A stretch of DNA of 62,632 nucleotides, counting the filler, from Dugesia japonica (taxonomy: Eukaryota), in the NCBI GenBank assembly GCA_001938525.1. It is 6 parts of 6 records of this genome, joined end to end, with 100 filler letters (N's around TTAATTAATTAA, not from the genome) between each part and the next. Parts side by side here need not be neighbours in the genome. Positions count along the whole stretch, not along the records: positions 47,258 to 62,632 come from MQRL01372838.1; 5 more parts are not named here. The stretch is one strand, 5' to 3'. Positions 18,255 through 62,632 of the stretch are shown piece after piece. Made by a program: the position numbers and the translations under genes. The notes beneath the pieces were generated by a model that ran no database searches, had not been told where the DNA came from, and saw nothing but the letters and a program-made list of their open reading frames with translations. Position 1 is the first letter of the stretch. The number at the start of each line of letters is the position of its first letter.

Positions 18255-18354
18255 NNNNNNNNNNNNNNNNNNNNNNNNNNNNNNNNNNNNNNNNNNNNTT
18301 AATTAATTAANNNNNNNNNNNNNNNNNNNNNNNNNNNNNNNNNNNNNNNNNNNN
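18255..18354. other. Artificial contig linker
   Basis: N44-TTAATTAATTAA-N44. Confidence 0.97.
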
Positions 18355-18599: not shown

Positions 18600-19060
18600 G
18601 ATCTAGTTGAATCAGTTCATTTTTGGGCGGTTTGGTTGAAACTTACCTCAAGAATAGTCAATATGGGCCAGTTTTGGACAATTTGGTCAGTTACTTACTC
18701 ACTTTTGGCAATGTTGGTTATTTTCTTACAAGGTTTGGACAATGTTGGTCAATTATTTGGTCACAATTGTAATATTTGGATAATTTGGTTGAGTTATTTC
18801 CTCGGGAATAGTTAATTTGGTTCAGTTTTGAATGATATTGTCAATTATTTACTCAGTGCTCAGACTTTGGTTGACACTGCTCCAATTTTGGACGATTCGG
18901 TCAATTATTTCCTCAGCATGGATAAACTTAGTCAATTATTTATTCATGGTAATTGGTTTTGGGTGGTTTTTGGAAAAGGATCAATTATTTGCGCACAAGG
19001 TTAATATTAGACGAATTCGGCCAATTCATAATCTATATTGAAATATTTGGTTACAAAAGT
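18600..19060. repeat. Degenerate ~40-bp tandem repeat; an inverted relative lies at 9250-9424
   Basis: Recurring TTTTGGACAAT(T/G)TTGGTCAATTATTT(C/A)CTC. Confidence 0.6.
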
Positions 19061-22590: not shown

Positions 22591-22672
22591 TCTAAAATAT
22601 ATAATATTAATGATAGGGCTAGAGAGAGATACTATAATAACAATAGATAAATATATATAGTTCTTTTTTATG

Positions 22673-23734
22673 TTACTCATTGTTAACTGAAAGTGTAAGT
22701 GTNNNNNCCTTTTCCGTGACAGCGATGGTGTTAAGCAAAACATTTTCAACAACAAATTTTAATGTCTTCTTACTATCCTCTTTAATGGTTGTTAATCTAA
22801 TGCGTTTCTTTCCAAACTGTAATTGCATATCTTTACCTGATATTCTTTTCAAAGTGTTTTTTGCATTGCTAATATTTCCATCCAACTTATCTATTTTGAG
22901 GGCTCTATTCAAATTGATTGTGCCCCTACCAGGTTTGTATATATCAATTTGTGGTCCAGAACCGAGGTCATCACTGTCGCTATCCGTATGATACGGCATC
23001 ACCTCGAAATCTCCTCTTACTTGATCCAACCTAAGATCTTCCACTTCCTCACCTGACCAGTATTCAGTTTCACTTTCAGACACCTTTTGTTCTCTCTGTG
23101 ACATTGTCCGTTCTGGAATCTCATCATCCTCAGATGCGTCCATATCTGTTTGTATCTGTTTAGGATTTCTTCGTATCATATCATCAATTAGTGTCTGCTG
23201 CTCACCAGTGTCGTTATGCGGTCTAAGTTCTTCTGGTAAGTCTTCCTCGTTCCACTCTATATCTATGTCATTACTCATATTAGATTGACTATCTGTGCTT
23301 CTATCTGTCTCTTCTCCATTCTCTTCCATATCTGAATCTTGTTCAGAATCTAATATCCATACTACACTATCTGGTTTCTCCTGTTCTCTAGTCATGACTT
23401 CTTGCAATATTGACGCATTATTTTCTATACCTTGCATAACCGGATTATTACCAGGATATATAGAATATTGCCATGGTTGCTGAGTAATTATTTGTTTGTA
23501 TATAATCTTTATGAATGTTATTCGTTTTGCTGTCGATTCCTGCGCTTTTTCTCTCGCTGTTTTCAACATATTTCTGATGACCCTATCTTGTCTTATGGGT
23601 TTGAATACTGCTTCCATAAGTTTGATCAATTTCAACTTCTTTACATTTGGAATATTACAATCATATGCTACCATCGCATTTGCTCCTCTTGCTAATTCCA
23701 ATAACATTATTATAATTGTTATTATTGTACCCAT
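22673..23734 (-). CDS. Signal peptide plus AYDCN glycoprotein stub fused to an acidic low-complexity region
   Basis: TIITIIIMLLELARGANAMVAYDCN matches TTILLLFLIMGRSEAILAYDCN at 54140-54210; the rest of the ectodomain is missing. Confidence 0.65.
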   Translation of the reverse strand: MGTIITIIIMLLELARGANAMVAYDCNIPNVKKLKLIKLMEAVFKPIRQDRVIRNMLKTAREKAQESTAKRITFIKIIYKQIITQQPWQYSIYPGNNPVMQGIENNASILQEVMTREQEKPDSVVWILDSEQDSDMEENGEETDRSTDSQSNMSNDIDIEWNEEDLPEELRPHNDTGEQQTLIDDMIRRNPKQIQTDMDASEDDEIPERTMSQREQKVSESETEYWSGEEVEDLRLDQVRGDFEVMPYHTDSDSDDLGSGPQIDIYKPGRGTINLNRALKIDKLDGNISNAKNTLKRISGKDMQLQFGKKRIRLTTIKEDSKKTLKFVVENVLLNTIAVTEKXXTLTLSVNNE

Positions 23735-24167
23735 TAGTGGTCAATTTGATTTTTTTAGTTTCTTTATTAATAAGTTTCTTTATTTCATCTTCTTGTTCTG
23801 TTTGTTGAATTTTTTGTTTACGATTATTTGTTGGATATAACGTTTCCCAACCTCCTTCTTGTGTGATCCACGCGTTAATCCCTTTATTCCAAAATCGATT
23901 AACTATTCGTTTTACAACCAAAATATTTTTATCCGGTTTCTCAACTAATTGTTCTCGATTCTTAAGTATTATATACGAAATAGCTGTGATTACTTTAATT
24001 TTATTTATTCCTTCTTTCATCATTGTTTTTATCACTTTATAATCATCAATTTCNGGATCTGCTATTATTAATTTGCTCACTTCTTTTATTATGAGTTTCA
24101 TGTCTTCGAATATCATTAATGCTTTATTCTGAGTTATTATGCAGTCATATAGATCAGCATGTACCAA
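23735..24167 (-). CDS. Bcl-2-like domain
   Basis: BH1-like MMKEGINKIKVITAISY and BH2 NAWITQEGGWETL (23844-23870). Confidence 0.72.
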
Positions 24168-24199
24168 TTTAATTAGACTTCTTATAAGTCCTTGATCTG

Positions 24200-25121
24200 A
24201 TCCTGCTTATGCTTGTTCATCATATCTTTGTGATATATTATTCAAATGTTCCGCTTGCACTTTTTCTGGTATTATATCCTCTAATTTTGGTCTACCTCTT
24301 GATCTTTTGTAATCTGATACTTTGTCTTTAAATACTTTCTGTCTTGGCATCTCGCTTCTTACATTATCTGATGTTGATGGTTTTTCATTCCTTGTGGTCG
24401 ATGTTGGTGGCTATTGCTGGCTTGCTCTTTCCTCCTCAGCTTTATTTGCTTGTGCCATCATACTTAAAATTTCTTCCATAGATTGTTGTTGATCATCTGT
24501 TAATACTTGTGGCTTATGTTTCATAAATGTCGCTTTTATGATATTAATCTTACCTGGAATAATTCCATATTCCATCAATGTTTTGTTCTCATTTAGTTCT
24601 GTATTGTAGAACGATAGCTGTATCACATCTTCATTTTGCAACAATACTGGCCAATATCTATTTACTATTTTATATAATTTATTTGTTTTTGTACACGCAT
24701 GTACTGTCAATTCTAATGCTGTCACCGAGCATTCGTTTTTTCCTGCTACCACTTTGATATTTAATGACTCTTGCAACATTTCGTTTCCTTTTACGTATTC
24801 ACTATATTTTTGAAATATCTCATCTATTGTTTCTAGATTTTCTGATATCTCTATTCTGTTTCGACTCTTTGCTAACATGATTATTATTGGTTTAATTTTT
24901 TGAAAATTGATAGGATATTCGTTAACATCTTTCAAATATTGTAACAATCTAAGTTCATTAATTCTTTCTTTTGTTATTTCCAATCTGACATTCTCTATCA
25001 ATATTTCTTGCTTCTTTTCGTCTATTGCATCTAAATCTACTTCTGTTGGTTCACACATATTTATTTCATATTCCTCTCTCTCTTCTTGTCTCTCCATCAT
25101 ACGCTGATAATGTATTTTCAT
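24200..25121 (-). CDS. Ubiquitin-like domain plus AT-hook (one in-frame stop at 24411)
   Basis: IQLSFYNTELNENKTLMEYGIIPG resembles the ubiquitin C-terminal half; KRSRGRPKL at 24282-24308 is in the same frame after the stop. Confidence 0.65.
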
Positions 25122-25219
25122 ATCTTAGAACTCAATTCTCATATTTTTATAAGCTTCATTATCGATTACTTCAATAGCATAAGTTTCTCTTGTTTCTGGG
25201 CTGAATGATACATCTTTCT

Positions 25220-26405
25220 TCAGAATACTTCTAGAATCATTTGGTTTATTTCTACNNNNNNNNNNNNNNNNNNNNNNNNNNNNNNNNNNNNNNNNNNNNN
25301 NNNNNNNNNNNNNNNNNNNNNNNNNNNNNNNNNNNNNNNNNNNNNNNNNNNNNNNNNNNNNNNNNNNNNNNNNNNNNNNNNNNNNNNNNNNNNNNNNNNN
25401 NNNNNNNNNNNNNNNNNNNNNNNNNNNNNNNNNNNNNNNNNNNNNNNNNNNNNNNNNNNNNNNNNNNNNNNNNNNNNNNNNNNNNNNNNNNNNNNNNNNN
25501 NNNNNNNNNNNNNNNNNNNNNNNNNNNNNNNNNNNNNNNNNNNNNNNNNNNNNNNNNNNNNNNNNNNNNNNTTTCTGTTGTAATTGCTATAATTTCTTTG
25601 GTAATAATCCGTTTTAAATTTTACATCCTGCTCCTTTCTACTATCTTGACGATTTTGATATGCTTTCCTCATCTCATTCCATGACGATTCCTCATTGCTT
25701 GCATATATTTCAATTGCATATATTTGTCTGGTTTTATCTTTATGTTTTGTATTTGCCTCAATTTGTCTCGTTTTTCTTGTTAGTTCTTCTAAGTTTTTAT
25801 ACTCTGCTGCAATTAGAGCATCACGAATATATTTATGTGTCCCATTTAGAAATTGAAATTCTATAGTATTATCTCCTTTTCCAAAAGCTTGCTCTGCTAA
25901 CCTTGTTAATTTATATATATATTCGCCCACTATTTCATTTGTTAATTGTGTTCTATCTCTAAAGTTTTGTATACAAATTCTTTCTAATTCACTTGGAACT
26001 ATTATCTTTTCCTCAATTTTGCTATTAGATCATTCCATTTATCAGGTTTGGCATCCAGATTTTTATAACATTTTAATGCNTTTTAATACTGTATTTTAAT
26101 TCTTTTAAATACAGTGGCAATCTTTTAATTAATTCTGCTTCAGTCCATCCATAAGCTGTGGCACAGACCTGCATATGGTCAAAGTATTCATCGGCCTCCT
26201 CAGGTTTCCCTGCATAAAATTGTATTGGTAATATATTTAATGTACCTCGGTGTCCAAATTCACCTCCTACTTGATCATTAATTGGTAAATTTTTAAATGG
26301 CATATTCACAGTATTATTATTTGCTGCAGCCATTTTTTTGATCTCTCTGTTTCTCAAATTATATATTGTATTCTCTTCAATGATTATTCCTTCAGTTTTT
26401 TTCAA
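25220..26405 (-). pseudogene. Gag capsid (Ty3/Gypsy retrotrans_gag type), frameshifted, contains a gap
   Basis: FYAGKPEEADEYFDHMQVCATAYGWTEAELIKRLPLYLK; R.Q...E.VGEYIYKLTRLAEQAF...QFLNG. Confidence 0.85.
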
Positions 26406-26414
26406 CTGGAATGC

Positions 26415-26570
26415 TAATAATTATTTTCTTCGGTATCGTTTCAAACAGTATACTAATCAAACAAATTCTTCGGTATCATTTCAACCGGAATACTAATCAA
26501 ACAAATTCTTCGGTATCATTTCAACCGAAATACTAATCAAACAATTTCGTCGGTTTGGTTTCAACCGATA
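26415..26570. repeat. 40-bp tandem repeat (~4 copies) in the gag leader
   Basis: TTCTTCGGTATCATTTCAACCGGAATACTAATCAAACAAA repeated. Confidence 0.85.
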
Positions 26571-26830
26571 AACTCTGAATCACATTTAACTTTATTACTT
26601 AAAGGGAACTGATTATATATTATCAGAACTTTGACAAGAGATTGCGGTAGGAATTCGATCCAAATCTAATACCAAACTTAAGATAATCAAATTAATCAAC
26701 TTTGATAAGAGATCGTAGTAGGATTTTCTCCAATATCTGATATCAAACTGATCAATACACGGTATATTTTAATAAAGGTTTGAAAACCCCCTTGATTTTA
26801 AAATAATTTTAATGATTTTTATTATTTTGA

Positions 26831-26849
26831 TTCCCGGTTCGCGGCACCA
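26831..26849 (-). promoter_or_regulatory. tRNA primer-binding site (His- or Phe-like)
   Basis: TGGTGCCGCGAACCGGGAA four nt after the LTR end ...CCAACA. Confidence 0.85.
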
Positions 26850-42870: not shown

Positions 42871-44149
42871 AATCTGAAACAAAGCGAACGAAAACCTAAG
42901 TATAATTTAAATATTATTGTAAGTTGTAAAAATCACGGTTTAAAATCTTCTACAAATATATAAATAAAAACAACTATTGTACCTTAATTTAACCAAATTC
43001 AAAATAAAACTGTCAATTCTAGAATCGTTGTGCAACAAAGTAAAAAAATCAAAAAGTAATCTATTCTTTTAAAAACCTTGTTTCTTAAAAATATAGTATT
43101 TGAGAAACGCAATTTGGTTCAAAAATTACCAGTGATTGGAAATACTTCTACTACCTATTGACACGGATTAATAAATTTTCAAAATTAAATTCGTAAAGAC
43201 TAGCGGATGTCAAAACAAATTCATAAAATTCTATTTTACGGGTTCAATGGATTTTTTAAAAGAAGTTTTAAATACTTGAATAATTTTTCTTAAAACATTG
43301 ACTTTTTGCAGAGAAAATCCGGTTTCATAGAAAAATACCGGTTTGTTGTTTTAAGAAATGAAGGACTTGACTTTTTGGCAAAATTTCAATTTTGATCGCT
43401 TTCTATAGAATTCATTTAAAATAAAAGCTTCGATCAAATCAAAATTTTTTTTGTATTGATATTTGATAACAATTCGATATTTCGATTTAGTCTTCTTCAA
43501 AAATTAGCTTTATATGGGCTGAAATTATTAATTATTTCCTTATATCCCTCTTCTGTCTAACCTTTTCTAGATTTCTCTTTAGTCGTTTCCCTTTTTCTTC
43601 TTGTACCACATATCGTCATTCGTGAATTTTCTCAATTATTCGATAAGAACCTTAAATCTGTTTCAGCTTTCATTTGTTGTTTGAACCTTGATTTTGACAT
43701 ATTCTCCTACTTCGAAGTCTCTATTAGTAATCACTTCTGAACTGTTTTCTTTAGTTCTCCCTTAAACTTACCAATTTTCTCTGCTAAATTTCTTTCTAAA
43801 TACAATTTCAGTCGAGCTCATTGCAGTCATCGTCTTTGTTGTGTTCAATATATATTCATTGTCTAATCTGTTGTCATTCTCTCCTGAAGTGTGGCATTAA
43901 TTAAATCACTATTCATCCTGCACTGTCTATAATGAATGAATTCCATTAACAGTGGATGTCTCCAAGCAACTCCTCTACTGGTGGAGCCCTGTCTTTTGTG
44001 TGCTGCCTTTCGGAATCACTTCCATATATTTACTCATATTCATTGTCTGCATTGACTTCAGCTCCAATTGCATGTATTCAATTGTATCCGTTCCTGGTCC
44101 TCTATTAGTTAAAAATTTATTCAATATTATGTTTTCCAAGTAAAAATAG

Positions 44150-46020
44150 AGAATTTATTTCGGACATGGATGCGAGTTTCGACACGATTAGTGCAGTTCT
44201 ATCTTAAAGGGACAACAATGGACAAGAAAGAGTAATTGCATATGGGTCACACGCAATGACGAGTCATGAAAAAGGATATTGTACTACGCAGAAAGAATTA
44301 CTTGCAATGTACTACTTTTGTATTCTTTTCAAACATTACTTATATAGGAAGAGATTTATCCTTAGAACAGAACATAAAGCTATCACTGTTATGTTAAATT
44401 CCAAGAAACCGATTACATCAGTTTCAAACTTGGATTAATTATTTGAGCAGTTTAGATATAAAATTGGGATATAGAAAAGAATCGCTTCATACAAAATGCG
44501 GATATGTTGTCAAGAAGTAAATGCGATACATGTGCACAATGTTAAATGTCACATGAAAATCATAAGAGTGGAAAATGAAAAACAAGGATGTTAAATACAG
44601 TATGTATCCATGAGAAACAAGGCGATTTGGAGAAAATGATGAAGGAACATGGATACTTGANGATAAATTAGAAGAGGTTATAATGAGGAAAGGTAGCAGC
44701 GTATATGAAGTGTAAATATACCGCAAAACATTTGTAGAGCAAAGTACAAGAGGTTGTCCGAAGTTGTATAACATGCCAGAAAGAGAAACTGTGGACAACA
44801 AAAACGAAGGAAGAAACGAAAAAGACGCAGNNNNNNNNNNNNNNNNNNNNNNNNNNNNNNNNNNNNNNNNNNNNNNNNNNACTTTTGTATTCTTTTCAAA
44901 CATTACTTATATAGGAAGAGATTTATCCTTAGAACAGAACATAAAGCTATCACTTTCATGTTAAATTCCAAGAAACCGATTACATCAGTTTCAAACATGG
45001 ATTAATTATTTGAGCAGTTTAGATATAAAATTGAGATATAGAAAAGAATCGCTTCATACAAATGCGGATATGTTGTCAAGAAGTAAATGCGAAACATGTG
45101 CACAATGTTAAATGTCACATGAAAATCATAAGAGGGGAAAATGGAAAACAAGGATGTTAAATACAGTATGTATCCATGAGAAACAAGGCGATTTGGAGAA
45201 AATGATGAAGGAACATGGATACTTGANNNNNNNNNNNNNNNNNNNNNNNNNNNNNNNNNNNNNNNNNNNNNNNNNNNNNNNNNNNNNNNNNNNNNNNNNN
45301 NNNNNNNNNNNNNNNNNNNNNNNNNNNNNNNNNNNNNNNNNNNNNNNNNNNNNNNNNNNNNNNNNNNNNNNNNNNNNNNNNNNNNNNNNNNNNNNNNCAG
45401 CCGAAATGTTTGAACTGTTATTTAAAAAGTTTGTGAATCACTGCAAGAGACAAGAGGTCGAAAAAGATATGTTCGCGGTATAATAGATCACTGCAGTAAG
45501 TATATAGCTTTGATAGCAATGACAAGACAAGACAAACTTACCATACGGAAAGCAATAATAGAGAAGTGGATATTAAAGTTTTGGTGTCCGAGAGAAATTC
45601 AAGTTTATTGTGGAAGAGCATTTGAATCTAAATTAATAAAAGCTGAACATTGAATTACCCTCAGGTTTTTGAGTCCATATCATCATAACACAAATGGACA
45701 AATCGAGAAGCAGTTTAGAACTATGCGTGATATGATAAATGCGACACTTCAAGAATAGAAAACCTCAGATTGGGCTGATGTATTGCCAGAGATAGAATTT
45801 ACCTTGAATGCTACAAAACAGAAGACCGCCGGGAAAAGTCCTGCTGAAATCGTATTTGGAAAGAGAATACGCAGCGAAAAATGGTACAAAAGAGATTCAA
45901 GGTTGGTTATGAGGCTTTGGTAAAAGTTGAAACAAGAATCAAGATTGTTTTGAAGGACCATATAAGATAAAAGGAAAGGTTCACGATAGACGTTTTATTT
46001 TTTGAAGATACAATCGGAAA
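44150..46020 (+). mobile_element. Ty3/Gypsy RNase H-integrase fragment
   Basis: DAS..AVL, GQERVIAYGSHAM..HEKGYC.T.KELLA, RTEHKAI, SPYHHNTNGQIEK, SPAEIVFGK, FEGPYKI. Confidence 0.88.
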
Positions 46021-47257: not shown

Positions 47258-48176
47258 GAGCCGCCGATCCCTCAGAAAACTCTCGGTACTCCCCCAGGAA
47301 GAATTATTAAAAGTGTGCATGTTACCCCGGCATTAATGTAAAAGGAAGGAAGAAAGCCAGAAGAGTTCGCCTATACTACAGCAAAATGGGTACTCTCACA
47401 CTCAGGAAGAGATAACCTAGCATAATAAGGGAAGACTTAATCAAGGAAATTAAAGGAAGTTTAAAGGAAGACTTATTTAACGAAAATTAAAGAAAGTAAA
47501 GCAAGGAAGATGATTTTAAGACTGTGATGACAAGTATGGAGCAGCATGATAGTAAAGTAAGTTTAAAATCTGGAAAAGGAGTGATTGCCTCCTCAGTAAA
47601 GACAATTAGGAGAAAAATTTATTCTAGAAACCCAAACCACAAGTATTACAAAACCAAAACCGAAGCACAGCGAGAAACCAACTAACCAGACTCTGACAAG
47701 AAGATTCCGACTCGGAAAATAGGAAACCACTTACAAGGTCCAACACAACGGGATTATTTACCTCAAGCTCAGTTCTAAAAGAAAACTAACTTTCGAGGCA
47801 AAAATCATCAAGGAAACTAAAGAACTCATCACTTTATTTGGACCAGGAAGAGAATATTTGTTGACTCAGGAAACCAGAATTCGACAAAACAGTATCCAAA
47901 ACTAAAACGTTTGTAACCATCAGCTCTAACAGTAGTCCGAGTGATAAGGAAAATAAAACTAACCCGAAAACCACATCCGGTAAAATTTCGGTAGCTAGTA
48001 ACTGATCAAGTGGGATAAGTTATACCTCAGAGGAATCAGAAATTACAGAAGTAACAGACAGTAATCAAGTAAACACCGACTCAGTGGTAACACGGTCAAA
48101 CAATTTAGAAACCGAAACACTCACATTAACAAACCAAGACCCGAAAATAGAAACTAATCTAGTAAAAGATAAAAGC

Positions 48177-49200
48177 ATGGCAAACAAAACTGAAAGCCAA
48201 CGACCAGAGTGGAAAATAAAATTTGATGGCGAATATTTTAGTGGAATACCAGAGAAGTTGGATGAATTTATCCAAAACTATGAAATGTACGCCAAAACTT
48301 GTGGTTGGGACGAAGAAGCAAAAAGAAAGCGGTTACCTGCTTATTTGACAGGAGTAGCTAAAACTGTGTTCTGGGATCACACTAAGGGCATGGAAGCCAT
48401 ACCCGAAATGGAAAGATGTGGTGAAAATATTAACCGATAATTTCCAAAATTTTAAGTTGACTGGCCAAGACTTCGAACAATTTACCAATCGAAAACAGCA
48501 GCGAGGAGAAACTCCACAGACTTATATGATGGAACTCTAGAGACGCGGCAAACTAGCCCTAGCAGATAAACTGGAAGATAGTAAAGTGCTAGCCATATTC
48601 TTAAATGTTTTACGCGATGAGAACGCCAAGCTAATAGTAAAGTTGAGTAAGCTAGTGACTCTACAGGATGCTCTAGCCACGTTGCGAATTGCAGCAGATA
48701 GACCTTCCAAACGGATATTCAAAGTTGAAGGACAGACAGAGGAGACCACACCAAGGATATCGGACTTCATACCTAACACCCAATCAATGATGAAAACCCT
48801 GACTCCAGGGCAAGAACGGAATAACAGGAATGATTGGCCCAACTACCCACGAGGAAATGGTGGAGGATTTAATATCCCTCGGAACAATTGGCAAAATAAC
48901 CGAGATATACAATGCAATACCTGTGGAAGAAGGGGGCATATAGCCCGCGATTGTAGAAGTAGAGGCATTATTAATAACAACAATCGATTTTGTACCTATT
49001 GCAAGAAGACCGACCACAATGTAGAAACGTGCTTTTTGAAAAACCCAACTGTCTTTTATAAGTGTAACAGAAGAGGGCATATGGCCAAGGAATGTCCAAG
49101 CGGAAATCAAGCAAGTTACAATCGAAACCCGAATGCAAATCTGGATAATCTAATGCAGAAAAACGAGAGATTGAGGCAGCGAGTAAATCAAAATAAAGGA
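48177..49200 (+). pseudogene. gag: Gag capsid plus three CCHC zinc knuckles
   Basis: FSG.PE.LDEFI..YE......GWDE......LPAYLTG.A; CNTCGRRGHIARDC, CTYCKKTDHNVETC, (F)YKCNRRGHMAKEC. Confidence 0.93.
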
Positions 49201-49619
49201 CAAGTAAACTTGGTGCACCAAAGTACTTTCGATAACGTGTACCACAATGCCCAACAAGAAAGTGATTGGCTTAAATGGCAAAACCAGGATTTGCAAGTAC
49301 AGCAGGAAAGACTAGCAAGGAGAAACTTGCTAAACGAACCACACAAGAATCAATGTAATATGATCAGAACCCATAGACAAATCTATAACCAACATGACAA
49401 AACCACGGAAGTTATCGAAATGGAAGACACGCGGAAACAACTCTTGATTACATCACCAGAATTCGAGTGGACTAATGAAATCATCTATAAAACAATAGAA
49501 ACATCAACCACAACCACCTGGAGAAGACGAGTGACGAATCAGTTACTTCGATTATACCAACACCCACAAGTACATACAAAAGTAAAAGCTAATTGGCAGA
49601 AAATAATATCGGATTACAT

Positions 49620-52600
49620 CGCCGAGCTCAATAAAGAAACTCAGTTAGAAGACTATGAATTCGAAATTCAATATGTATGGCATAACAACCCGGAGGTAAT
49701 CCCGAAACGACTAAAGCTGGTACTAAAGGAAATGACAGTTCGTCACCTAAAAGAAGCTATTAACTGAATAAAATGGAGAGAATTAAACGGTATTAAAGGT
49801 ATGACGGTAAATCCGTTTCTCGAATCACCACCATTTAACGATCAACAACAATGGAATGGAAAATGGAATAGGCACAGACTGCAAATAGGTAATATATGAA
49901 TCAATATTCTTCTAGATGATAAGAATCTAATCTATTACGGGGCACAACCTCACGAAACAACCGATATCAAACTGATAAACCGGGGATTGGTCTTCAGACT
50001 CCAAATAGTAATTCAGGAGATAGAAACAGACGAGTTATATCATAACCTCAAAGTAACATTTATAAAAGAAATAGTTCCTACTCAGGCTCAAAACTACCTA
50101 CGAAAACGATTTGAAAAGTTGAGACTAAGGGACTATCCAGACCTGGAACAAAAGGAAGCCTCGCGATTATCCTTAGCCCGAATTAACGAGATACTTATAG
50201 CTGCCCAGAAACTCCATGATACGATAAAGAGGGGTGTATACTTGAAGTTGACCAATCGATTAGTAGAATTATTAGAAGTTATGAAATTGATCACAAATTT
50301 TGAAAGCGATTGGACAGAATGGTTACCTGTACATTATGATTTGGTAATATCCAACATGGGATTATCAGAATACAAAGTATGGTTGTATAACCCAGAAGGT
50401 AATATGAAACTGACACTCACGGGATTAATGGTAAAAGATCTGGAATCGGCACTTAATCAAGCAGGTTATCCATGTGTAACTGATAAATATGTATGTACTC
50501 CAAGTGCAATAGTGGATTTTAATGCCAGAAAAAGACATCTCTACGATTTTGAAGTAAAGCTAGGAGAAGAAATTGATCTTGTAGTATTGGACAAACACCC
50601 TGGTATTGATTATGACATATGGGTAACGAAAACCGGAAGATCGGCATTAGAAATCATGGGGGAATGGAATATCTATATAAACAAGAAGTAGAACCTATAA
50701 AATTAAGATACTTTCCACAGTATTGGGAAAGAAAGACAAGCTAACAAAGGAGGAAAGGAAGCAGTTACTGATGACGCGTAAAGATTTTCTCAAACAACGA
50801 TTAGAGAGAAGAGACGGGAAATGCAACATGATAAGAATGCGACAAATGCCGTCAAGGGAAGTAGTAGCAATGCGTAAAGTGGAGGAAATGGTTAAACTAT
50901 TCCATCAGAGTCAGTCTCCTCAGCAAAGAGGGAAGCATAAAAAAGGTGGATATGATAGTATTGGAAGGATTAACTATCCGACATGTTATAAAACCAAATA
51001 AGAAGTGGTTATGGCCAAAATCACTCAAGTCATATAAAATGCAGGCGGGAGCAACAATGATCATATTGGCCAAGAAAGAAGATCATATTTTCCTACACGA
51101 TATTAAACCAGGAGAGACCACTGAAATCAAGCTACGCCTCGGAAAATGACAATAGATATTCCTATACCAAAAATGCCGGATACCGATCAACTTATATTCA
51201 ACATGATGAGTCTGTATATACAAGAAATATTACCGGTAGAAAATGAACGTCTCATAAATACGTACGGAGAAAGCAAAGCCCAAGTAAACATGGTCAGGAA
51301 TAATGGATCCAAAATCCCAGTCCTGACATCGGATGAGGAGGAGGAGGAAGAAACCGCAGACGATACCGTCAAACCCAAACTATTACCGTTTAAACAAGAA
51401 TTTGTTGGCCCTTTCAGGTCCCCTCAAGCCAAGCGGATATCAAAGATAATTTCTGATTTCTGTTATTTTCTGGGAAAAATACCCAGGGCAAAATTTTGGA
51501 ATGCAATAAATTTACTAACGGATTTGTCAAAATATACCGAAATAGTAAAAAAGAACGTAATTAGTGGAAATCTATACTCAAGTTGCATACTGGTGCAGTT
51601 AAGGCCAGTGCCAAGGGAGATGATTTTCAGGTCACCATAGAATATTGGACACCAAACAAGAAACCCAGAAAGGAACAAGAATTGGCCTTAATGTACATTC
51701 CACATTTCGATAGCACAGGAGCATCGGAATTACAAGAAACTATAGAGTCGTTGGATATAGCTGATCAACAGAGTGGCTACGTAATCACAAGTGACCATTT
51801 GTGATTTCCTATCAAGTTTGAAGGAAACAGCATTTAATGAACGTAGGGTTGAGATCAGGGGAAAATACTTTTCTCTAAATACAGAAACCCGAATATTACA
51901 CTCCAGGTCCAGTAAAGTCTATGAAAGAAGTATTACGACAACTCGAAGATTTATACGAACAAGAAATCGGCAGTGGAAAACTGTTTGAAGAAGTCGACGA
52001 TAGAACAATGGAGATAAATATTGAGTCATGGGAAGATAGTAAAACTTGGGGAAGCCTGCCTCGAGTAATAATGAAAATACTTAAGACACGACAAAGTTAT
52101 GCAATTAATCCTTAAGTTAAATCAACTACGAGCTATAAGTCGAATGCCAGGAGACGTAATGGATGTAATATTAAATAAAGCAGTTCGCATGATAACTAAT
52201 GAAGCAGTTGACGTAATAATCAAATTTCCGGATGAAAGCGAAATTCATTGGCAGGTCCAAATGAATGAAACATGGGCTAAGTTACGGAAAAGGATTATAA
52301 AATTTATGAACCAACAGTGTATCCTTGACGAGGAGGAAAATGGAACGCAACCATTAGTACAAGAAGACGACATAGTGCTCTATTATAACCAAGTAATAGA
52401 ACCAGACCAAATGAGATTGCCAGTGAAATATATCGGGATTTCGCCAGGAACTAAATTGAAAATGTATGTAACAGCAAAGAAGGCGGAGAGACGACGACCA
52501 CGGGTCTCGGAGAAAAATGGAAACAGGAAGCCAGAGAAGTAGTGGAATATTATATCGAGGAGATACATCCACTAGTATTCGCAAGAGCTAAGCTCCCTAA

Positions 52601-53120
52601 ACAAGAACAGGGTAAACCACGAGTGGAGATGGTAGCAGTTCTGACAAACACACCCGCCAAGGATCAGAAGCCAGAGGACAATTTACCAAAATTATTCGAA
52701 TTGCTAGTCGGTGATAAGTTAATAAAGCCAGAAATCATACGTCGATCCAATATAATCCTACAACAAGATCTGGCAGTAGAAGACCTCAGAAAACTACGAC
52801 GGTTAATTATGGCCATCAAGGTATCCCATGTGTGGGATCCGATTCAATTCAATAAAATTTTGGTTTAATGGCGAAAAGCGGAAATGGGACAAGCCACTCC
52901 CTTGAAAATCAAATTTAGAATAATCGATCTGGAAAGAGACAAGATTACGGTTAAGATACCGGTATATAATACGGTAAAACACTTACGGGATAAGCTACCA
53001 TTTAAGCCACCCGGATGAGGATGAAATAATAGAAGATACCACTCCAATCGGTCTAATGAAAATAAATTTAGTTAAACCTAATACATTATGGATTTTCCAG
53101 AATTAGGAGGTACTCTCACT
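49620..53120 (+). pseudogene. Accessory polyprotein region with multiple ubiquitin-like (beta-grasp) domains
   Basis: TVRHLKEAI...LIYYGAQP; MVKDLE...LYDFEVKLGEEIDLV; VDVIIKFPDESEIHWQVQMNETWAKLRKRI...YIGISPGTKLKM; TVKIPVYNTVKHLRDKL. Confidence 0.6.
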
Positions 53121-53624
53121 CGGAAAGACGCAGACCCTTACAAGGCAGCAGATAAAACGAGACCAATAAAAAACACAAAATATTCACCTCCAACTAGGAA
53201 AAGTGAAGAAATAAGGGTCAAAGGGTCAACACGAAGTAAAAAATATGATCCTAGCAAGGTAGATTTGGATGAAGAAGATGTATTGGAAGAACAACCATTA
53301 TCACCAATATTGAGTAGAATAGCAAAAGAATTGCCCTCCTCAGTTATGGACGTTTTAATGGATACAAATCACCCCTTAGAAATGGAAAATACTATAGAGA
53401 CAGAAGAGGAAGAAGTGCCGCCAAAACCAGTACGCACCCGAGTAGATGTAGAAACAATTACCGAACCTCCCATTTGAGGCAGACCAAGAACAAAACCTCC
53501 GGGAAATCCGGAGGAGGAGGAAGCATTAAAACAAAAACGATTAGCAACATCAATAAATCACTAAACCAAGAGATTAGCAACGGTATCACAGGAAAGAGAT
53601 CACGAGAATTCAGCGGATGAGGAC

Positions 53625-54015
53625 ATGCCCACAGAATTAGTAATACGGCAACTATTGTTAATGCTTTACCCAGAGCTAAAGATATGGATTGGTAAATTCG
53701 AACTATCCGATGGCCTCAGACTGCTTGCAAAGGAAATAGAAGCGGCCATCAGGAAATTTCCCGCTACTAAAGGAACTAGTTATGGTACAAAAGACAACCT
53801 AGAAGGGGTAATGGATGAGTTGCTACAGGATTCATCAACGAAAGGGAGAATAGTGGAGTCTTTAGCGCATTTTTATTAATCAAACACATCTATCAATCGC
53901 TAGAAGCAAGCCGTCAAAAAACTTCATTCTTAGTAAATTACCGATATTGGATTTAATGCAAAACAAAATTGGGCCGCTGATAAAGCAGCAAGGAGGATGG
54001 AAAAGTTTATTGAGA
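53625..54015 (+). pseudogene. Bcl-2-like domain (frameshifted)
   Basis: BH3-like LRLLAKEIE, BH1-like VMDELLQDSSTKGRIVESL, BH2 LIKQQGGW/EKFIE at 53977-54015 (alternate frame). Confidence 0.75.
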
Positions 54016-54139
54016 CCATATGCCCTAAACCACAGCCATCACATGAAAATGCAACTAGAGTAATAAGGATTGTTCGGGACCAGTTAAATGAGATCGAGAA
54101 TGGATGGGCACGTGAGCCTCGCGGAAATTCTTGGCAAGC

Positions 54140-56424
54140 ATTAACAACTACAATACTCTTGTTATTCTTAATTATGGGCAGAAGTGAAGCCATATTGGCA
54201 TATGACTGCAATAGGATGCAAGTTGGGAAGGAAGTATTCTCATTAGTAGATACTGAGGAATGTCCAGACGTAAACCCGAAGAAAATCTCACTCCGTAATA
54301 ATTCCGTTTATCACTTATATCAGGAATCAGATTATTACAAGGCCCAAGTACGCGAATGTACGGTAACAATGAAGACATTTATATTTCATTGTGGTTACCA
54401 CAGTTATACCTCGATAATCGATCCGAGAACAGTGAGACATCCAGTACATCTAACGGGACAACAATGCAACGCAGGGTTCACAACTGGTAAAATTACTATC
54501 AAACATGGAACTCAGGTTGTCGCCAAGAAAGGACATGTAATCGACCAACCAATAGAAGCAGCAGGGAGTATATCGTCACATAAAGGTAACTGTGAATATG
54601 GTACGTACACTATACGAGGAAAGGTATGGCAGTATGCGGTAGCCATTGAAACCTACACAGTAGAACTCAAAGAATACGAAGAATTTTTCGATGCACAGGA
54701 TTTAACTATGAAAGGAAGGTCATACTGCAAAGCAGCGGATGGATCATGTAATACAGGTACGTCGACGTTGATATACCAAGTAGATCACCAGGATTGCAAG
54801 AAGCAGTGTTTAATGAATACCAAGGACAACGTGTTATAGCACCTATTGATCAAGCTCCCAAGGAAAGTAATCTAAAAGATAGAATAGATAACTTTAAAGA
54901 AACAATAAAATCGGGCCCGAGGTCATACGATCAGCAATGGCACACCACGCCCACGGTGTTAATGTCTTCAGAACAAGATGAGACAATCCGATTAATCAAA
55001 GGAAATTCTATGTCTAAATGTGGCCAAATAGTATACAAAACAAACTATAAAGGAATATTTGTATCAGAATATCGAATAAAAACGGCACAAGCTGCAGTAA
55101 TGTCCCAAGATATCAAGCTGCACCTCTATGCCAATAATAAAATGGACAACTTATTCCACCGGATGCAGGATACTATCGGACGAATGTACCACGACCTTAT
55201 ACAAAACGATTGCACATTAAACAAGGAAATATTGAAAGCTAGCAATGGCGGTTACAAATCCAAATAGTTTAATCCCGTTACTTCCTCTAGAAAAAGGACA
55301 ATTTGGGCGAGTAGTAGGTGAAGTAATGTACCTATATAAATGCAAGGCGATAGATGCAGAATTTTCATTCAATCCCAAAAACTGCTATAATGAGATAGAA
55401 ATCATCCACAATAATGAGAAACGTTATGTCCAACCAATTACTCGAATAATATCACCGCTGGGTTATAAGCCAAATATCATAAATTGTTCTAATGTATTTG
55501 AACCACAATACATAATGACAGATGGGTCCTGGATAAGGTTTCCACAACAAAAAAGGAGTCGAACCACGGAAATTCTCAATGTTACGATGAAATAAGGGAA
55601 TGCAATTTACGCCAATCGATATAAATTAAGAAGAAATCTATAGCAGGGAAGATTTAGAAAAAGCAAGGGAATATATGTTGTTTCCGGTTCAAAGGATGCA
55701 AATCCTATCGAATATAGTACAATTAACCAGTGGAACTAACATTGACGGACGAGTAAATTACGATGCACTCTTATCAGCGGATCATTTTCAAAAAGCCACC
55801 GAAAATGTAATGCGGAAGATGTGGGGAAGATTTATAATATTTGGACAAGCGATGGCAGGATTGCTGGGAGTCATGTTGATAATTTCAGTAACACGGGTAG
55901 TAATTAACCAATTGTTTGCCTGTTTTGACATATACAAAAGAGAAAAGAAAGTGAATTGGAAAATGGTAACTGGAATATTCCCATTCCTAGCCAAAACCAT
56001 AGTGCTTAATAGTCACTCTAAAGACATCGAAAGGATAAAACGATTTATTCGGAAGCTAGGACAAATAAGAGGATTGGACAAGGAGGTCATAATGCAACTT
56101 AGATTATTGTGTGAAGAAATGAGTAATGCTAAAAAGAAAATATCATATTTCAACCAATTCAAAGAAAGATTCAAGAACAAAAGCGAGATTAGTAGCAGTA
56201 GTGACGACGACAGAGGAGGAAGCAGTGGAATACCACACGTGCCTAGTTATAAAACCGCCATGGAATACGATGCAGAATTTAAAAGACAACAATATGAAAA
56301 AATCAGTAAGATGCAACGATTAAGAAATGCATTAAAATTTGGAGGAAATGAAAATATACCAGCACCAGCACAAATGTACTATAACGCCTATCCGCAACAC
56401 GGATGGCAACCTATGAATCAATAA
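54140..56424 (+). pseudogene. env: Envelope glycoprotein, chuvirus (Jingchuvirales) G-like, with signal peptide and C-terminal TM
   Basis: SEA/ILAYDC...SLVDTEEC, HCGYHS, LY.N.K, GEVMYLYKC, C.NEI, PITRII, TM FIIFGQAMAGLLGVMLIISVTRVVI. Confidence 0.85.
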
Positions 56425-56469
56425 TCACAACAGGTATGGGCACCAGGTCCCATATATAACACCCCTTAT

Positions 56470-56985
56470 ATGGGTTCACCACAAGCTCGTAATATGGCAT
56501 TATTAACAGAGAACAATTTATCAACGATTGACCGAAGAATTACTGACCAAAATTTGTACTCTCCAAATAACCAAATTACTGAGGACGATAAACTAGAAAC
56601 TCAAACTGTGTGCATGATGATCTCTCCGCGAGCAAAACTATTACAAAAAAGAATAAAAATAGATGGAAGATGGGTACTAGCCATTATCGATACGGGAGCA
56701 AGTACGACGTTAGTCCACAAAAGGGTACTAGAAGACTATCGACTACTCCGAATAACAATTCCTAAAGGAGTTATCATCACAGTCTCGGTGGAAAAGATCT
56801 CACTCGTTGGACAAGCAATATGTGCAGTAGAAAGTGACGGACTACGTCTATGGCGTAAACTACAAATAATGAATGAACTAACTTTCGACTGTTTATTAGG
56901 ATTGGATCTCTTACCACGCCTTTGTCCAGAAGGGATATTAGACCTGCGGAAACTAACCATAAGGGAGAATCATGATCGAGAATAA
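56470..56985 (+). CDS. Retropepsin aspartic protease 1
   Basis: AIIDTGASTTLV and CLLGLDLL; same frame as the env tail, separated by one TAA. Confidence 0.9.
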   Translation: MGSPQARNMALLTENNLSTIDRRITDQNLYSPNNQITEDDKLETQTVCMMISPRAKLLQKRIKIDGRWVLAIIDTGASTTLVHKRVLEDYRLLRITIPKGVIITVSVEKISLVGQAICAVESDGLRLWRKLQIMNELTFDCLLGLDLLPRLCPEGILDLRKLTIRENHDRE

Positions 56986-57142
56986 GCGCCGGTAGGGTAT
57001 CAGAAAACTAGAATAATAACCCAACAAAGACGATTAGCCATGGAATCAACCAACGTACAACCAAAAACCGTGACTCTCACCAGGCAGAGGCGAGCAAGGT
57101 AACTCAAACCAAAAGCGTGAGAAAACTACAAGCACATCCACC

Positions 57143-58153
57143 ATGATAAGAGACGATTGGATAAGGTTTCAAGAGCGAGAACCTAGATGGAAAAATCAAA
57201 AGCAGCCTAAAACCAAGCATAACTCTTCAAACGTGGTATGTACAAGTCTCAGCGGGGGACCTGTATTAACAATTATGATTAAAATCAATGGTAGACCTAC
57301 AACGGCATTATTGGACACAGGAGCAACAATCTCACTATTATCAATAGAAGAGATCGCGATCACGGAATATAAAAACATATTACCTACTAACACCACAGCA
57401 GATGTGACAAACGGAAGCAGTCTTAAAATTTTTGGGGAATTAGCTTATGAGGTTGAATATCAAGACAACAAAATTAAACACAAAATGATAGTAGTAGAAA
57501 TGGCTGGAGAGTGTATTTTGGGTACAGACATTCTCCCAATTTTGATGAAGGATGGCATATTAAACTTTTCCACATTACAGTTGCAATCCTTGGAGGGGTA
57601 TACCCACGTTAAAGATCATGAAGTATTCACTACAGAAGAAATCTTGGTATCTAGTAGATGCCAAGTCTATTGCGTAGTAAGTACGAAAAGTGCATACGAA
57701 GGATATTGCTATTTTGAACCTTATGACGGATTTGCACAACAATATGAGTTACCTACGGCAGGAGGAATAACCACAGTAAATAAAAGCGGAGAGGTACCGG
57801 TTAGCTTGGTCAATTTCACTGAAAAGGATATCAAAATCAAACCGAATTCCAGGATGGGCAGACTAACTCCCATCGAACCAGAAGCCGAAGAGATAGAGGA
57901 AATAGTCGCCGAACTCGAAATAGATAGAACATTTAAGGTGGGAACAGAAACACTATCAGATGATCAAAAACAGGCAATACTACAATTGTTGGAAGAATTT
58001 AGGGATATCTTTGCATGGACTGATGAAGAGCTAGGTATGTGTACAGCTACAATGCAAACCATTCCCTTAACAGATGAAACACCAAGCAAGCAGAAACCAT
58101 ATGCTATGACAGTGGAGAAAAAGGAGTTTGCAAACAAGGAAACGGCCAAATAA
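57143..58153 (+). CDS. Retropepsin aspartic protease 2 plus beta-rich spacer before RT
   Basis: ALLDTGATISLL and CILGTDIL; V.LVNF....I.I......G spacer; LLEEFRDIFA. Confidence 0.9.
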   Translation: MIRDDWIRFQEREPRWKNQKQPKTKHNSSNVVCTSLSGGPVLTIMIKINGRPTTALLDTGATISLLSIEEIAITEYKNILPTNTTADVTNGSSLKIFGELAYEVEYQDNKIKHKMIVVEMAGECILGTDILPILMKDGILNFSTLQLQSLEGYTHVKDHEVFTTEEILVSSRCQVYCVVSTKSAYEGYCYFEPYDGFAQQYELPTAGGITTVNKSGEVPVSLVNFTEKDIKIKPNSRMGRLTPIEPEAEEIEEIVAELEIDRTFKVGTETLSDDQKQAILQLLEEFRDIFAWTDEELGMCTATMQTIPLTDETPSKQKPYAMTVEKKEFANKETAK

Positions 58154-60700
58154 GTAAAAATCGGTGTGATAGAACCCAGTTGCTCACCATGGCAATCACC
58201 AGTGGTACTAGTCGATAAAAAAGACGGGACACAGCGATTCTGTATCGATTACAGGAGATTAAATGTGCAAACTAAAAAAGATACGTATCCGTTACCGGAT
58301 ATCAATGAATTACTTCAACTACTGTGTAACGCTAAAATATTCACCACATTGGCTACTCGCAAATACAGATCAAACCAGAGGATAGAGAAAAAACAGCCTT
58401 TTCTACAGGCAAAAACTTATATCAGTTTATCCGTATGCCATTTGGGCTTACCAATGCATCAGCTTCTTTTCAACGAATGATGAATTATGTGACTCATGGT
58501 ATATCTCAATGTATGGGCTATATTGTCGACCTATTGATCTATTCACCAACATTCGAGGGACATTTCAATGATTTACGTAGTGTATTTATCCGATTGCGGA
58601 AATGGAATTTGAAAGTTAAACCCACCAACTGCGAATGGGTGAAGAATAAGGTAACATATCTCGGACATTTGATATCGGATAAAGGAAAAGAGCCTGATCC
58701 TCGAAATAACGAGAAAATACGAAATATAGCACCGCCAAATTGTGTGCTCAAAATACAAGAATTTCTCGGTCTTGCAAACTATTATCGCAAATTCATTAAG
58801 GATTTCACTAAAACTGCGAAACCAATGCAGAAATCGGTCAAACAAAATACTGCCTTCATATGGGAACCAGAGCAACAGCAATCATTTGAGACGTTACGGG
58901 ACAAATTATTAATGCACCAATTCTGGTACATCCAGATTTCTAAAGGCCCTTTATATTAGCCACTGACGCTAGTGGTTATGCGATGAGCGCAGTATTAAGT
59001 CAACTAGATGAACAAGGAAGAGAAAGAGTGATCGCATATTTTAGCAAAAAATTTCAAGGAGCAGAATTAAATTACAGCACTACAGAACGGGAAATAATGG
59101 CTATCGTGAAAGCCACCAAACATTTTTTATCTCTCATACATGGTCACGAGGTGTTAATCTATACGGATCACCTACCAATCACATCCATGGCTCAGAAACC
59201 ATTGCGATGGAACAGAATAGCAAAATGGCAATTAGCAATGCAAGATTATTGCCATCTGTTGAAGTTTAAAACGGGGAAAGCGAACTCAAATCCCGATTGT
59301 CTGTCAAGAATCGGTGGACCAGAAACTACGAAGAATACACCAGAAGATACAGAAACATTTACATTACGGGAATTATTAGAGAAAAAAGTAAGAATGGTAT
59401 ACTTTATATTAGCCGAGGATAGAAATTTCGATGGGCTAAAACAAGCACAGGCCGACGATGAGGAAATTAAGATCATCATGAAATATATGGAGAATTATAA
59501 TTTAGAGAAGTTAGAATGCGAACCTAAGATGAAAGAGCACTTNNNNNNNNNNNNNNNNNNNNNNGCACTTACCAAAGGATGGTTGACAGCTCAAGACGGA
59601 GAGAATACCATATTGGGTATCCCTAAAGCAAGGCGGGATAAATTACTTGAACAATATCACAATGGTGTACTCGGCGGACACATGTCTCATAAGAAAACCG
59701 AGTCAAAATTAAGACAGAAATATTACTGGCCACACATGACAGAATCTGTAAAAAAATAGATTGCCAAATGTTAAATATGTGCTGCCAGGAGAGGAACAGG
59801 CAAAAGAGTAAAAGCATTATTGAAACCAATCGCAGTACCAGCAGCGCCAATGGAAATCATCGCTATGGATGTAGTTGGGCCATTACCACCAACCCTAAGT
59901 GGAAATATTTACATACTTAACATAATGGATTATTTGTCCAAATTCCCCGAGGCGTTTCCAATGAAAAATCAAAAGGCCACAACTATAGCGGACACAATGG
60001 TACGGAAATCTTTCAGTCGATATTGTACACCCAAGAAAATATTAACGGATCAAGGAAAAAATTTCATGAGCAATATATTGGCAGAAATATCGAATTTTCT
60101 TAAAATCCACCAGTTACGGACATCACCTTATCATCCCCAAACAGATGGATTAACGGAACGATTTAATAAAACTCTGATCAATATGCTGTCTAGTTATGCG
60201 CAAAAAGAACAGAATAATTGGGACAAACATATTCAGCTATGTCTATTTGCCTACCGTATGAGTGTGCACCCAGCCACTAAATACACTCCGTTCGGTCTTA
60301 TGTATGGAAGAGAATGTAACATGCCAATCGATCTAGAATTTCAATTACCTATAACACAATATCAAGACGAAACCAATTTCGTGGCGAACTTCAAAGAAAC
60401 CCTGCAAAAGATATGGAAACAAGCCAAGGAGAACGTGGGATTTTACCAAGAAAGTTACAAAGATTTACATGATAAAACTGCAACGCAACATTCCTTTTAA
60501 AAAAACGACGTGATATTGATTAATTTGCCCGATATTTGTGTTGGCACTACGTCAAAACTGAAAAGGCCATGACAAGTGCCATACGAAGTAATTGAGGTAA
60601 CCGAAACCAATCTCAAAGTTCGAAAGAAAGGAAATCTCTTGGAAAAACCTAAAATATACCACGCCAACTTATGTAAAAAGGCTGCAACGATGGAGGAAGT
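58154..60700 (+). pseudogene. pol: RT-RNase H-integrase (Gypsy order), inactivated
   Basis: SPWQSPVVLVDKKDG..RFCIDYRRLN, MPFGL.NA, YIVD in place of YxDD, TDASG, TDH, GGH...YYWP, MDVVGP, TDQG, YHPQTDGLTERFN, .PY motif. Confidence 0.96.
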
Positions 60701-62632
60701 TATGCCATCCACCAGTATTACACTGACTACGATGGAACACAGAGAACCAGGTAGGCCACGTAAGTCGGAAAATATGAAGCCGCACATTTCACGTAGTTAT
60801 CCATTAAGATCACAACAAACTATGATAATACTCGGGAATTCATCCACACCAATATTTGTGTTAGGTCAATTAAGTCAGCGGGTTAAAGTATTGGGTACCA
60901 CAACAATCTATCCTATAATTCCACGAGGAACACAGTCACCAGTACCATAAAACTGTTGCGCTCACCTATATCGGGTGACATACCCTATCTCACCAACACT
61001 ACTGGAAGCAAGTTGTCTTACCTGCATACGGGAAATACAATCAGTTTTGAAGTCGACATTACGAGACGTCGCTGGTCATAGATTTTGGTTGTTGCAGCAA
61101 GATGAATTTGGTGGATTTACCTATAAAACGCATGACAAACTGACAGTGCAAGCACCTTTGACGTCTTGCGAATTAGACACTCTATGCGAACGTTGTATCG
61201 GTAATTATAATGAAACCCTCACTCGAGCTATTGAGAATTTCCATGTGATATTAATAGTGTGGGATTGGTTGGTACTATGGTCTCAACCAGTTGATCATCC
61301 ACCATGGAGTGGCTTAGAGCCATTATCAGGAAAAAGAAGTCTCAACGAGAACGCTGAGTCTGAAGAAGATGGGGAAGGGGAACTAATGAAGAAAGCTGTG
61401 AAGTCGGAAACGGACATACAACCAAAAGACGATGAAAAGATAGAAACAGAGTTACANAAAATAACGAGATTATTGAAAGATGGCGTATTAAAGTATGCAG
61501 ACAAACAAAGAAAAGAAAGGAAGTTGAAAGAAAGCGGAGCATCACGTCAGGACTTTCATAAAATTGGCAACGAAAATACGAACACAAGGGATATTGCGCT
61601 AGACACCAAAGGATTAAATATTTCGAATAAACTAGTTACGCTGAAAATGACTAAGACATCAGATATTAATCATCCGCCCCAAGTTCAAACTACATTATCT
61701 ATGAATCCACTATTATGTCACAAGAAATTAAACATGTATCTTTTGGTTTAGACAATCAAATGCGTCAGCCACTGGCAGTTGAAGCTATGAATGCTACATA
61801 CTATACAATCACATGTCAGGGGAACAAGACACCAAGATCCGAAGAAAGTTGTAATAACATTAACTATACAACTTGTCCGCTGTCAGCACTGCAATCGGAA
61901 GAGAATTGTTTGCAATGTATCAAACAAACACAAAAAGTATTAAAAAATGCGCTAAAGGCCATTTACGATCAAAGAGCATGCTTATCCAAACCAGAAAATT
62001 GGTTCAGAAAATACTGCGATGGGTCACAAATCAAATTACCCATTCAAGCACCAATTCATCAATCTTTCATCAAAAAATAATGCATGCCATGTACAGATAT
62101 CTATAGTCAGGAATTATTAGCGTCAATTCAAGTATTTCACCATACGCTAGTACAATGGAACTGGATCAGAGTATATAAACCTTTGGAGATCCAATTACCA
62201 TGAAAAAGACTGAGCCAACCATTTTAAACAAATACAATCTTAAAANNNNNNNNNNNNNNNNNATACAATCTAAATAAGTGGCTTCCAGAAAAATGGAACC
62301 AATCAACATTGTGAACACTCAGAAAGGATTACAAAGACAAGTGACATCAATGAGAGAAGCATTTCAGGATCAATGGAATGAAATGGAGAAAAAGTGGAAA
62401 CAATTAGCCAAAATAACGCCAAGAAGGGCAAGAAGAAAGGAAATGAAACTAGTACAAGACGAGATGAATCAAACCGAACCAAGAAAATCAGAAAATAAGT
62501 CACCACAAGGAAACAAGAACGGGATTACAACAGAAATGCTAATCAAAATAGCCTTATGGTTATGGGCGGTATTCAACACAAGTTGGGATTATGGCATATT
62601 AATTTGGTTGACAATGAAAGTTATCGGAAATA
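60701..62632 (+). pseudogene. Post-integrase extension: AT-hook, two Cys-rich repeats, hydrophobic segment at the window end
   Basis: PGRPRK; SCLTCIREIQSVLK..QAP..CERC versus NCLQCIKQTQKVLK..QAP..CMPC; same frame as integrase up to 61751. Confidence 0.6.

Follow-up and report, generated by a model that had tools for sequence, protein, structure and literature searches.

How did a glycoprotein gene resembling those of chuviruses come to lie in a retroelement of the planarian Dugesia japonica: was it captured independently by one Gypsy lineage, as proposed in a preliminary description made from the sequence, or was it inherited within an older group of elements? The window, i.e. the whole stretch of DNA analysed here (62,632 nucleotides, assembly GCA_001938525.1), consists of contigs joined with 100-base spacers, and the element carrying env is located on the last of these (47,258–62,632, 15.4 kb).

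Identification and integrity of the env gene

All six motifs on which the preliminary description had based a chuvirus-like env at 54,140–56,000 were found within that interval on the + strand, at 54,198–55,434: AYDC (54,198), SL.D..EC (54,240), HCG.HS (54,387), GEV.YL.KC (55,317), C..E+.+ (55,383) and P.TRI (55,434). Four of them turned up only once when all six frames of the window were searched; AYDC was present twice, the second occurrence (23,668, − strand) being part of a related second element, and C..E+.+, with seven occurrences, is uninformative when taken alone. The four stop-to-stop pieces of the gene, which together span 54,183–56,043, all matched the Pfam family PF24664 (Monjiviricetes_fusion), with E values of 4.3e-33, 3.2e-11, 4.7e-14 and 5.8e-19 in order (114.6, 42.4, 51.7 and 68 bits, all above the curated cut-off of 27). 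The pieces were colinear on this profile (positions 5–226, 245–347, 350–458 and 478–601 of 653) and covered positions 1–208, 222–330, 330–445 and 434–562 of 564 in an env profile built from relatives; the gene is essentially of full length. Its frame changes three times (near 54.8–54.9 kb, 55.24 kb and 55.56–55.6 kb) and is interrupted by an in-frame stop near 55.63 kb, a breakage absent from the preliminary description. The − strand of the window gave no match to the env profile.

The assignment to a chuvirus-like glycoprotein was thus borne out, by PF24664 in four of four pieces and by a chuvirus glycoprotein as the best viral match of an intact relative. A check for best matches to baculovirus F, to gypsy Env or to cellular proteins was negative; a class I protein of the baculovirus F/Drosophila gypsy Env type could be ruled out, since the env pieces matched no Pfam family other than PF24664 at E<=0.1 and the env profile retrieved only herpesvirus gB from PDB sequences (33 of 33 matches, best E 0.006). 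A phmmer match of env piece 1 to a phage dUTPase in the PDB (E 0.003) was considered to be due to chance. Env piece 1, compared with longer proteins by a direct word-index search, matched none of 821 candidates, and a search of viral contigs gave five pattern matches, none of which was confirmed.

A hydrophobic stretch at 54,141–54,197 (mean hydropathy 1.66 over 19 aa), a counterpart of which also precedes the xYDC motif in relatives, probably serves as an internal env signal sequence, and a transmembrane anchor is predicted at 55,834–55,890 (mean hydropathy 2.24; same site in the intact relative P0126, residues 1843–1861), signal and anchor both being assigned from hydropathy alone. Between them lies the ectodomain of chuvirus-G/herpes-gB (class III) type (54,198–55,833), in four pieces colinear with P0126 at 30–43% identity; the class is taken from PF24664 and the predicted fold of another relative, P0127. 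A post-anchor tail (55,891–56,424) ends at a stop, beyond which the ORF list shows the first protease, with no change of frame. All of these features are on the + strand.

The host element

Pfam searches of 23 pieces returned the order CCHC knuckles, 4 kb without a confident family, env, protease, protease, dUTPase-like domain, reverse transcriptase (RT), RNase H and integrase. The gag region (48,177–49,767, +) comprises capsid-like and CCHC zinc-knuckle pieces (zf-CCHC, E 1.3e-9) with a break near 48.44–48.54 kb, and two of its stretches (48,177–48,371 and 48,808–49,311) match the N-terminus of P0126. Next comes an accessory region (49,768–53,564, +) made up of numerous short, broken ORFs, where no Pfam family fell below E 0.05 and no relevant PDB sequence match was seen. 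Downstream of env, still on the + strand, are two retropepsin-like protease domains, each with a DTGA motif (56,623–56,901, Asp_protease, E 2.4e-6; 57,272–57,544, gag-asp_proteas, E 2.3e-7), a dUTPase-like domain (57,608–57,871; PF00692, E 2.4e-4, at 21.3 bits just under the cut-off of 22), a frame-broken RT and RNase H (58,154–59,312; RVT_1, E 3e-17; RT_RNaseH, E 4.5e-33), in which the catalytic YxDD position reads YIVD (58,519), and an integrase with zinc-binding part, core and C-terminal part and with stops inside (59,566–60,770; rve, E 3.1e-13, and tblastn of P0126).

The protease–RT–RNase H–integrase order, the Ty3-type RNase H, the lack of any Pao-specific Pfam family and the presence of gypsy-annotated proteins among the named integrase relatives identify the element as Ty3/gypsy (Metaviridae). 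The Gypsy host lineage and the unusual position of env, here between gag and protease in the Pfam order, had both been correctly recognised. The last contig has a GC content of 0.37–0.40, above that of most of the window, with even composition across the element, and is purine-skewed on the + strand along its whole length. Frame changes and stops affect gag, env and pol alike, and this copy is very likely inactive. No LTR or repeat pair was found on the 15.4-kb contig, and the contig end probably falls within the element.

The region after the integrase (60,951–62,632, +), which ends at the window edge, contains two similar cysteine-containing stretches (60,951–61,448 and 61,670–62,077; 32% over 69 aa, E 7e-10) that matched no Pfam family and none of the stored proteins. 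The corresponding part of P0126 contains a signal-like stretch and a membrane anchor as well as other domains. As regards the tandem protease domains (56,623–57,544, +), several proteases are also present in relatives P0128–P0137; by motif count only, at least two protease motifs occur in 9 of the 13 env-bearing relatives examined, and P0131 has seven protease matches (motif count; Pfam stretches).

Putative accessory modules upstream of env

Directly 5′ of the env signal, a probable Bcl-2-like remnant split over frames (53,565–54,012, +) is suggested by weak sequence similarity and a BH2-like GGW near 53,990. It aligned with the corresponding piece of the second element (35% over 34 aa, E 0.045) and with P0126 (E 0.024). 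With a Bcl-2-like profile the remnant scored 1.1 bits, under the best of 50 shuffles (3.3), as against 35 bits for the second element, and 53,565–53,876 had no Pfam or PDB match. Ubiquitin-like-looking stretches were noted by eye on the + strand near 52.2–52.48 kb and 52.93–53.06 kb; a Ubl profile gave −2.7 bits at 52,941–53,000, within the shuffle range. PDB sequence searches with the Bcl-2-like and Ubl-like pieces of this copy returned nothing relevant.

Of 22 relatives compared with their upstream sequence, 5 had the BH2-like GGW 60–95 residues ahead of the point where that sequence ends; it was absent there from the rest. P0127 matched Pfam Bcl-2 (PF00452) at E 1e-3, below the cut-off, while a 7-sequence profile of relatives matched Bcl-xL at E 0.005, and a ubiquitin match in relatives reached E 0.03. 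Folded from its sequence alone, the Bcl-2-like piece of the second element reached a pLDDT of 46.7 and showed no Bcl-2 among 50 VIA rows, an uninformative result, and in the ESM Atlas this piece fell to three unnamed clusters with low recognition.

Intact relatives and homologue searches

The integrase search produced 257 matches among 804 candidates, the top 11 at 48–53% identity and the twelfth at 43%; searched with the same integrase, metagenome contigs gave four distant loci (32–43%). The cluster member P0126 consists of a single open frame of 3,735 aa in which Gag, env (PF24664, E 1e-91), protease, RT, RNase H and integrase were all identified. The window runs colinear with this frame, at 30–43% identity for the env pieces, 52% for RT and 42% for RNase H–integrase. 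Four further env relatives came from an additional search.

P0127 had 1,355 matches at E<=0.001 in an exhaustive search, and the best 150 of these were considered. Within these 150, the top tier consisted of envs within long polyproteins or fragments thereof, with up to 58% identity to P0127, and the next tier below of stand-alone glycoproteins of ~660 aa. Ten of the stand-alone proteins were looked up: two were named viruses, two cluster with insect genome proteins and six were unnamed. The named viral glycoproteins were 27% (Tacheng tick virus 4) and 26% (Wufeng shrew chuvirus 2) identical to P0127. When 153 homologues were ranked against each of the four env pieces, the first 16 places never included a named chuvirus glycoprotein.

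A close pol relative, P0007 (81% to P0126 in RT/RNase H), carries at residues 50–235, right before the protease and in the same ORF, what by eye is a short signal-domain-anchor module and not env.

Predicted fold of env in an intact relative

The fold was computed for P0127, which is 40% identical over env piece 1, and not for the window protein itself (AlphaFold model from a 131-sequence alignment; pLDDT 82.5, pTM 0.58). In a Foldseek comparison with the PDB all listed rows were herpesvirus gB (best E 3.9e-14, TMq 0.29), with low TM-scores (TMq about 0.3 in the top rows), and VIA aligned the model with HSV-1 gB (Z 10.3, rmsd 10.1, 425 aligned) and Bourbon virus glycoprotein (Z 6.0). Among viral models, the best match was the Tacheng tick virus 4 glycoprotein (E 8.8e-41, TMq 0.53), with further matches to chu-like, qin-like, xinmo- and rhabdo-like proteins. 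The env of an intact relative is thus predicted to fold as a class III fusogen of gB/chuvirus-G type, in agreement with the class III expectation of the preliminary description as far as the AlphaFold model of P0127 and its best PDB match, gB, are concerned.

Phylogenetic placement of env and reverse transcriptase

The env tree was built from 57 of 122 env stretches, after 29 of 151 homologues had been left out as shorter than 430 aa, and the four window pieces were placed in it separately. All four, together with 16 top-tier relatives, fell on one side of a branch with SH-aLRT support of 98; 12 of these 16 relatives have a protease or RT in the same ORF. Forcing the window pieces together with two named chuvirus glycoproteins was rejected by the AU test (p-AU 1e-31) at a cost of 385 log units, to which the joining of these two viral glycoproteins to each other contributed. 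Forcing them together with P0186, which we take to be a Pao-type glycoprotein from its DUF5641 domain, was likewise rejected (p-AU 1e-41, cost 333 log units).

The RT/RNase H tree, which comprised 30 of the 31 candidates together with three pieces from the window and no reference Pao RT, united all eight env-bearing polyproteins, six other sequences and the window pieces on the same side of a branch (97/91). The window RT pieces had long branches and no resolved position within the base of the clade. Two sister pairs were common to the env and RT trees. Given this shared clade and the shared pairs, a long-standing association of env with this pol lineage is likely. Since both trees are unrooted, the donor and the direction of transfer between virus and retroelement are not given by them.

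Comparison with published elements

A chuvirus-like env beside gypsy pol is already in print: nematode, bryozoan and flatworm elements with a gB-type env in the order GAG-ENV-POL were described by Chary and Hayashi (2026, PMC13524379), and a planarian polyprotein with in-frame env between gag and pol, Burro, by Arkhipova and Yushenova (2019, PMC6431247), who presented it as the first of its kind. The association with gypsy and the position of env, both put forward in the preliminary description, were therefore already known.

The supplement of PMC13524379 prints domains I-II of six Schmidtea envs. Over these domains, window positions 54,309–54,779 were identical to Smed_errantivirus_5 at 74 of 157 gap-free positions (47%, by eye), within the range of 32–64% printed there for Smed pairs, and all eight domain I-II cysteines were shared (by eye). 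Smed_errantivirus_1-6 (configuration C1a) resemble the window element in their Ty3/gypsy pol, the placement of env between gag and pol, the gB-type env and the C1a cysteines. They differ in that they were chosen as intact, whereas the window copy is broken, and the parts of PMC13524379 considered here do not describe for them accessory modules or a second protease.

The Burro polyprotein is reported to contain Gag, Ubi2/SUMO-like, BCL2-like, env, protease, dUTPase-like, RT, RNase H and integrase parts, with an internal region of up to 25 kb and a total of >30 kb for Burro/GYPSM1 (PMC6431247). By description, not by sequence, it shares with the window element the CCHC Gag and the order env, protease, dUTPase-like domain, RT, RNase H and integrase. 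From gag to the integrase end the window element has ~4,200 codons, compared with 4,873–5,140 aa in Burro. In the published account Burro/GYPSM1 has BIR, MATH and ankyrin domains, none of which was detected in the window element (23 decayed pieces, E<=0.1), although ankyrin is present in relative P0131. Unlike Burro/GYPSM1 as described, the window element has two protease domains, and its Bcl-2 and Ubl modules are only weakly detectable. The Burro env region was matched in PMC6431247 to mononegavirus fusion glycoproteins and also called homologous to gypsy Env (F type), whereas the window env is not of F type.

The mosquito element Anakin, a BEL/Pao element with a chuvirus glycoprotein (Dezordi 2020, PMC7642597), is likewise an LTR retroelement with a chuvirus-like class III glycoprotein. 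The window element differs from the published Anakin in being gypsy and not Pao, in having env upstream of the protease, and in an env lineage distinct from P0186, the one Pao-type glycoprotein compared. The Jingchuvirales glycoproteins of Tacheng tick virus 4 and Wufeng shrew chuvirus 2 belong to the same Pfam family, have the same fold and are the nearest named viral matches, but are encoded as stand-alone genes of ~660 aa, at 26–27% identity to the intact relative and outside the polyprotein-env clade. In arthropods, a clear gypsy capture was not found according to the portions of Dezordi 2023 considered here (PMC10084718), and PMC13524379 goes further.

The element described here is a new, decayed representative of this published group. 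One decayed copy adds little weight by itself; the group as a whole connects chuviruses, herpesviruses and retroelements through their class III fusogens, and an env in frame within a gag-pol polyprotein is a rare design.

Origin of the env gene

Given the domain order, family match, breaks and tree placement observed above, we consider it highly probable that the locus is the broken env of a decayed Ty3/gypsy gag-env-pol element, likely a Burro-like flatworm errantivirus, and that env was likely inherited from an ancestor of the clade and not captured by this copy. The capture by this Gypsy lineage proposed in the preliminary description would, if recent and independent, account for the nearest named viral relatives being chuvirus glycoproteins in both sequence and fold, and for an env lineage apart from the Pao-type glycoprotein tested. 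We nevertheless regard it as very improbable: P0127 is only 26–27% identical to the named chuvirus glycoproteins as opposed to up to 58% to polyprotein envs (best 150 of 1,355 matches), the forced grouping was rejected (p 1e-31, part of the loss coming from forcing two viral glycoproteins together), the env and RT trees share a clade and two sister pairs, and a published planarian relative stands at 47% identity. The window env nests in a clade of polyprotein-embedded envs tracking pol (SH-aLRT 98; RT tree 97/91) and matches the published planarian GAG-ENV-POL errantiviruses. What stood of the claimed independence from the Pao capture applies to the clade as a whole (AU test against P0186, one Pao-type glycoprotein), and does not extend to a capture by this copy. 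A chance insertion of an endogenous chuvirus element into a gypsy copy, foreign to the retroelement itself, would recall insect genomes, where chuvirus glycoprotein fragments often adjoin gypsy fragments with capture unproven (PMC10084718), but it has next to no probability here: P0126, P0131, P0134, P0136, P0138, P0140, P0146 and P0151 are open polyproteins with the same env together with protease, RT and integrase, the second element in the window keeps the same gag to env-start order, and GC is even across the element (0.37–0.40).

Inheritance of env within the clade is compatible with a single ancient event, separate from the Pao capture, in which the ancestor of the gag-env-pol clade acquired env from a jingchuvirus-like virus; to this origin we assign roughly even chances. 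The occurrence of PF24664-type glycoproteins across chu-, xinmo-, qin- and rhabdo-like viruses and the precedent of the Pao capture (PMC7642597) speak for it; against it, the trees are unrooted, only two of the ten stand-alone matches looked up were named viruses, and PMC13524379, where no global class III phylogeny was inferred, argues for a pre-Cambrian association. The opposite direction seems unlikely, and we put it forward as speculation: the deeply diverged env of these gag-env-pol retroelements might be older than the jingchuvirus glycoprotein, as its ancestor or sister, so that negative-strand RNA viruses would have taken their fusogen from a retroelement, and the env signal sequence might double as the tail-anchor of the upstream Bcl-2-like domain, coupling cell entry to an apoptosis regulator.

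Under the favoured reading of an env inherited within the clade, intact members are predicted to encode one long polyprotein with a class III env, an in-frame fusion which is not visible in the broken window copy. Gag and the accessory Ubl/Bcl-2-like modules would be synthesised in the cytosol, entry of the env ectodomain into the ER would be directed by the internal signal sequence, and the transmembrane (stop-transfer) anchor would bring the chain back to the cytosol, where protease(s), dUTPase-like domain, RT, RNase H and integrase would thus remain. Signal peptidase and the element's own retropepsins may then release the polyprotein parts, with Env, as a putative fusogen, giving enveloped particles able to fuse with neighbouring cells. 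If the upstream product retained the signal sequence, the Bcl-2-like domain would presumably be anchored by it.

A second related element and other repeats in the window

Sequence and profile searches revealed a second, related non-autonomous element at 21,820–26,849 (− strand), comprising a primer-binding-like site, gag, Ubl-like and Bcl-2-like parts, the env signal with the first env residues, an acidic ORF and a RING ORF, and no pol. Its gag matched that of the first element at E 7e-5, and its profile matches included PF11976 (E 0.023) and PF00097 (E 1.6e-7). Env and pol have been lost from this copy and the Bcl-2-like module retained. Its RING ORF (22,758–21,820, −) is intronless and of C3HC4 type (Pfam E 1.6e-7), with TRIM-type RINGs as PDB matches; it resembles RNF10, in our estimation, and is possibly a captured host E3 ligase. 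The primer-binding-like site matches a His-tRNA primer at 10 of 12 positions when compared with the supplement rows of PMC13524379.

Other repeats were also seen. Polinton-like pieces at 515–4,339 (+) and 17,902–21,648 (+) include an A32-type ATPase (Pfam E 0.006); fragments of capsid and DNA polymerase B genes were recognised there by eye. At 17,435–15,726 (−), 44,100–45,900 (+) and 34,206–33,667 (−) lie other decayed gypsy remnants, from RT, RNase H and integrase, along with part of a mariner-like transposase, the latter recognised by eye.
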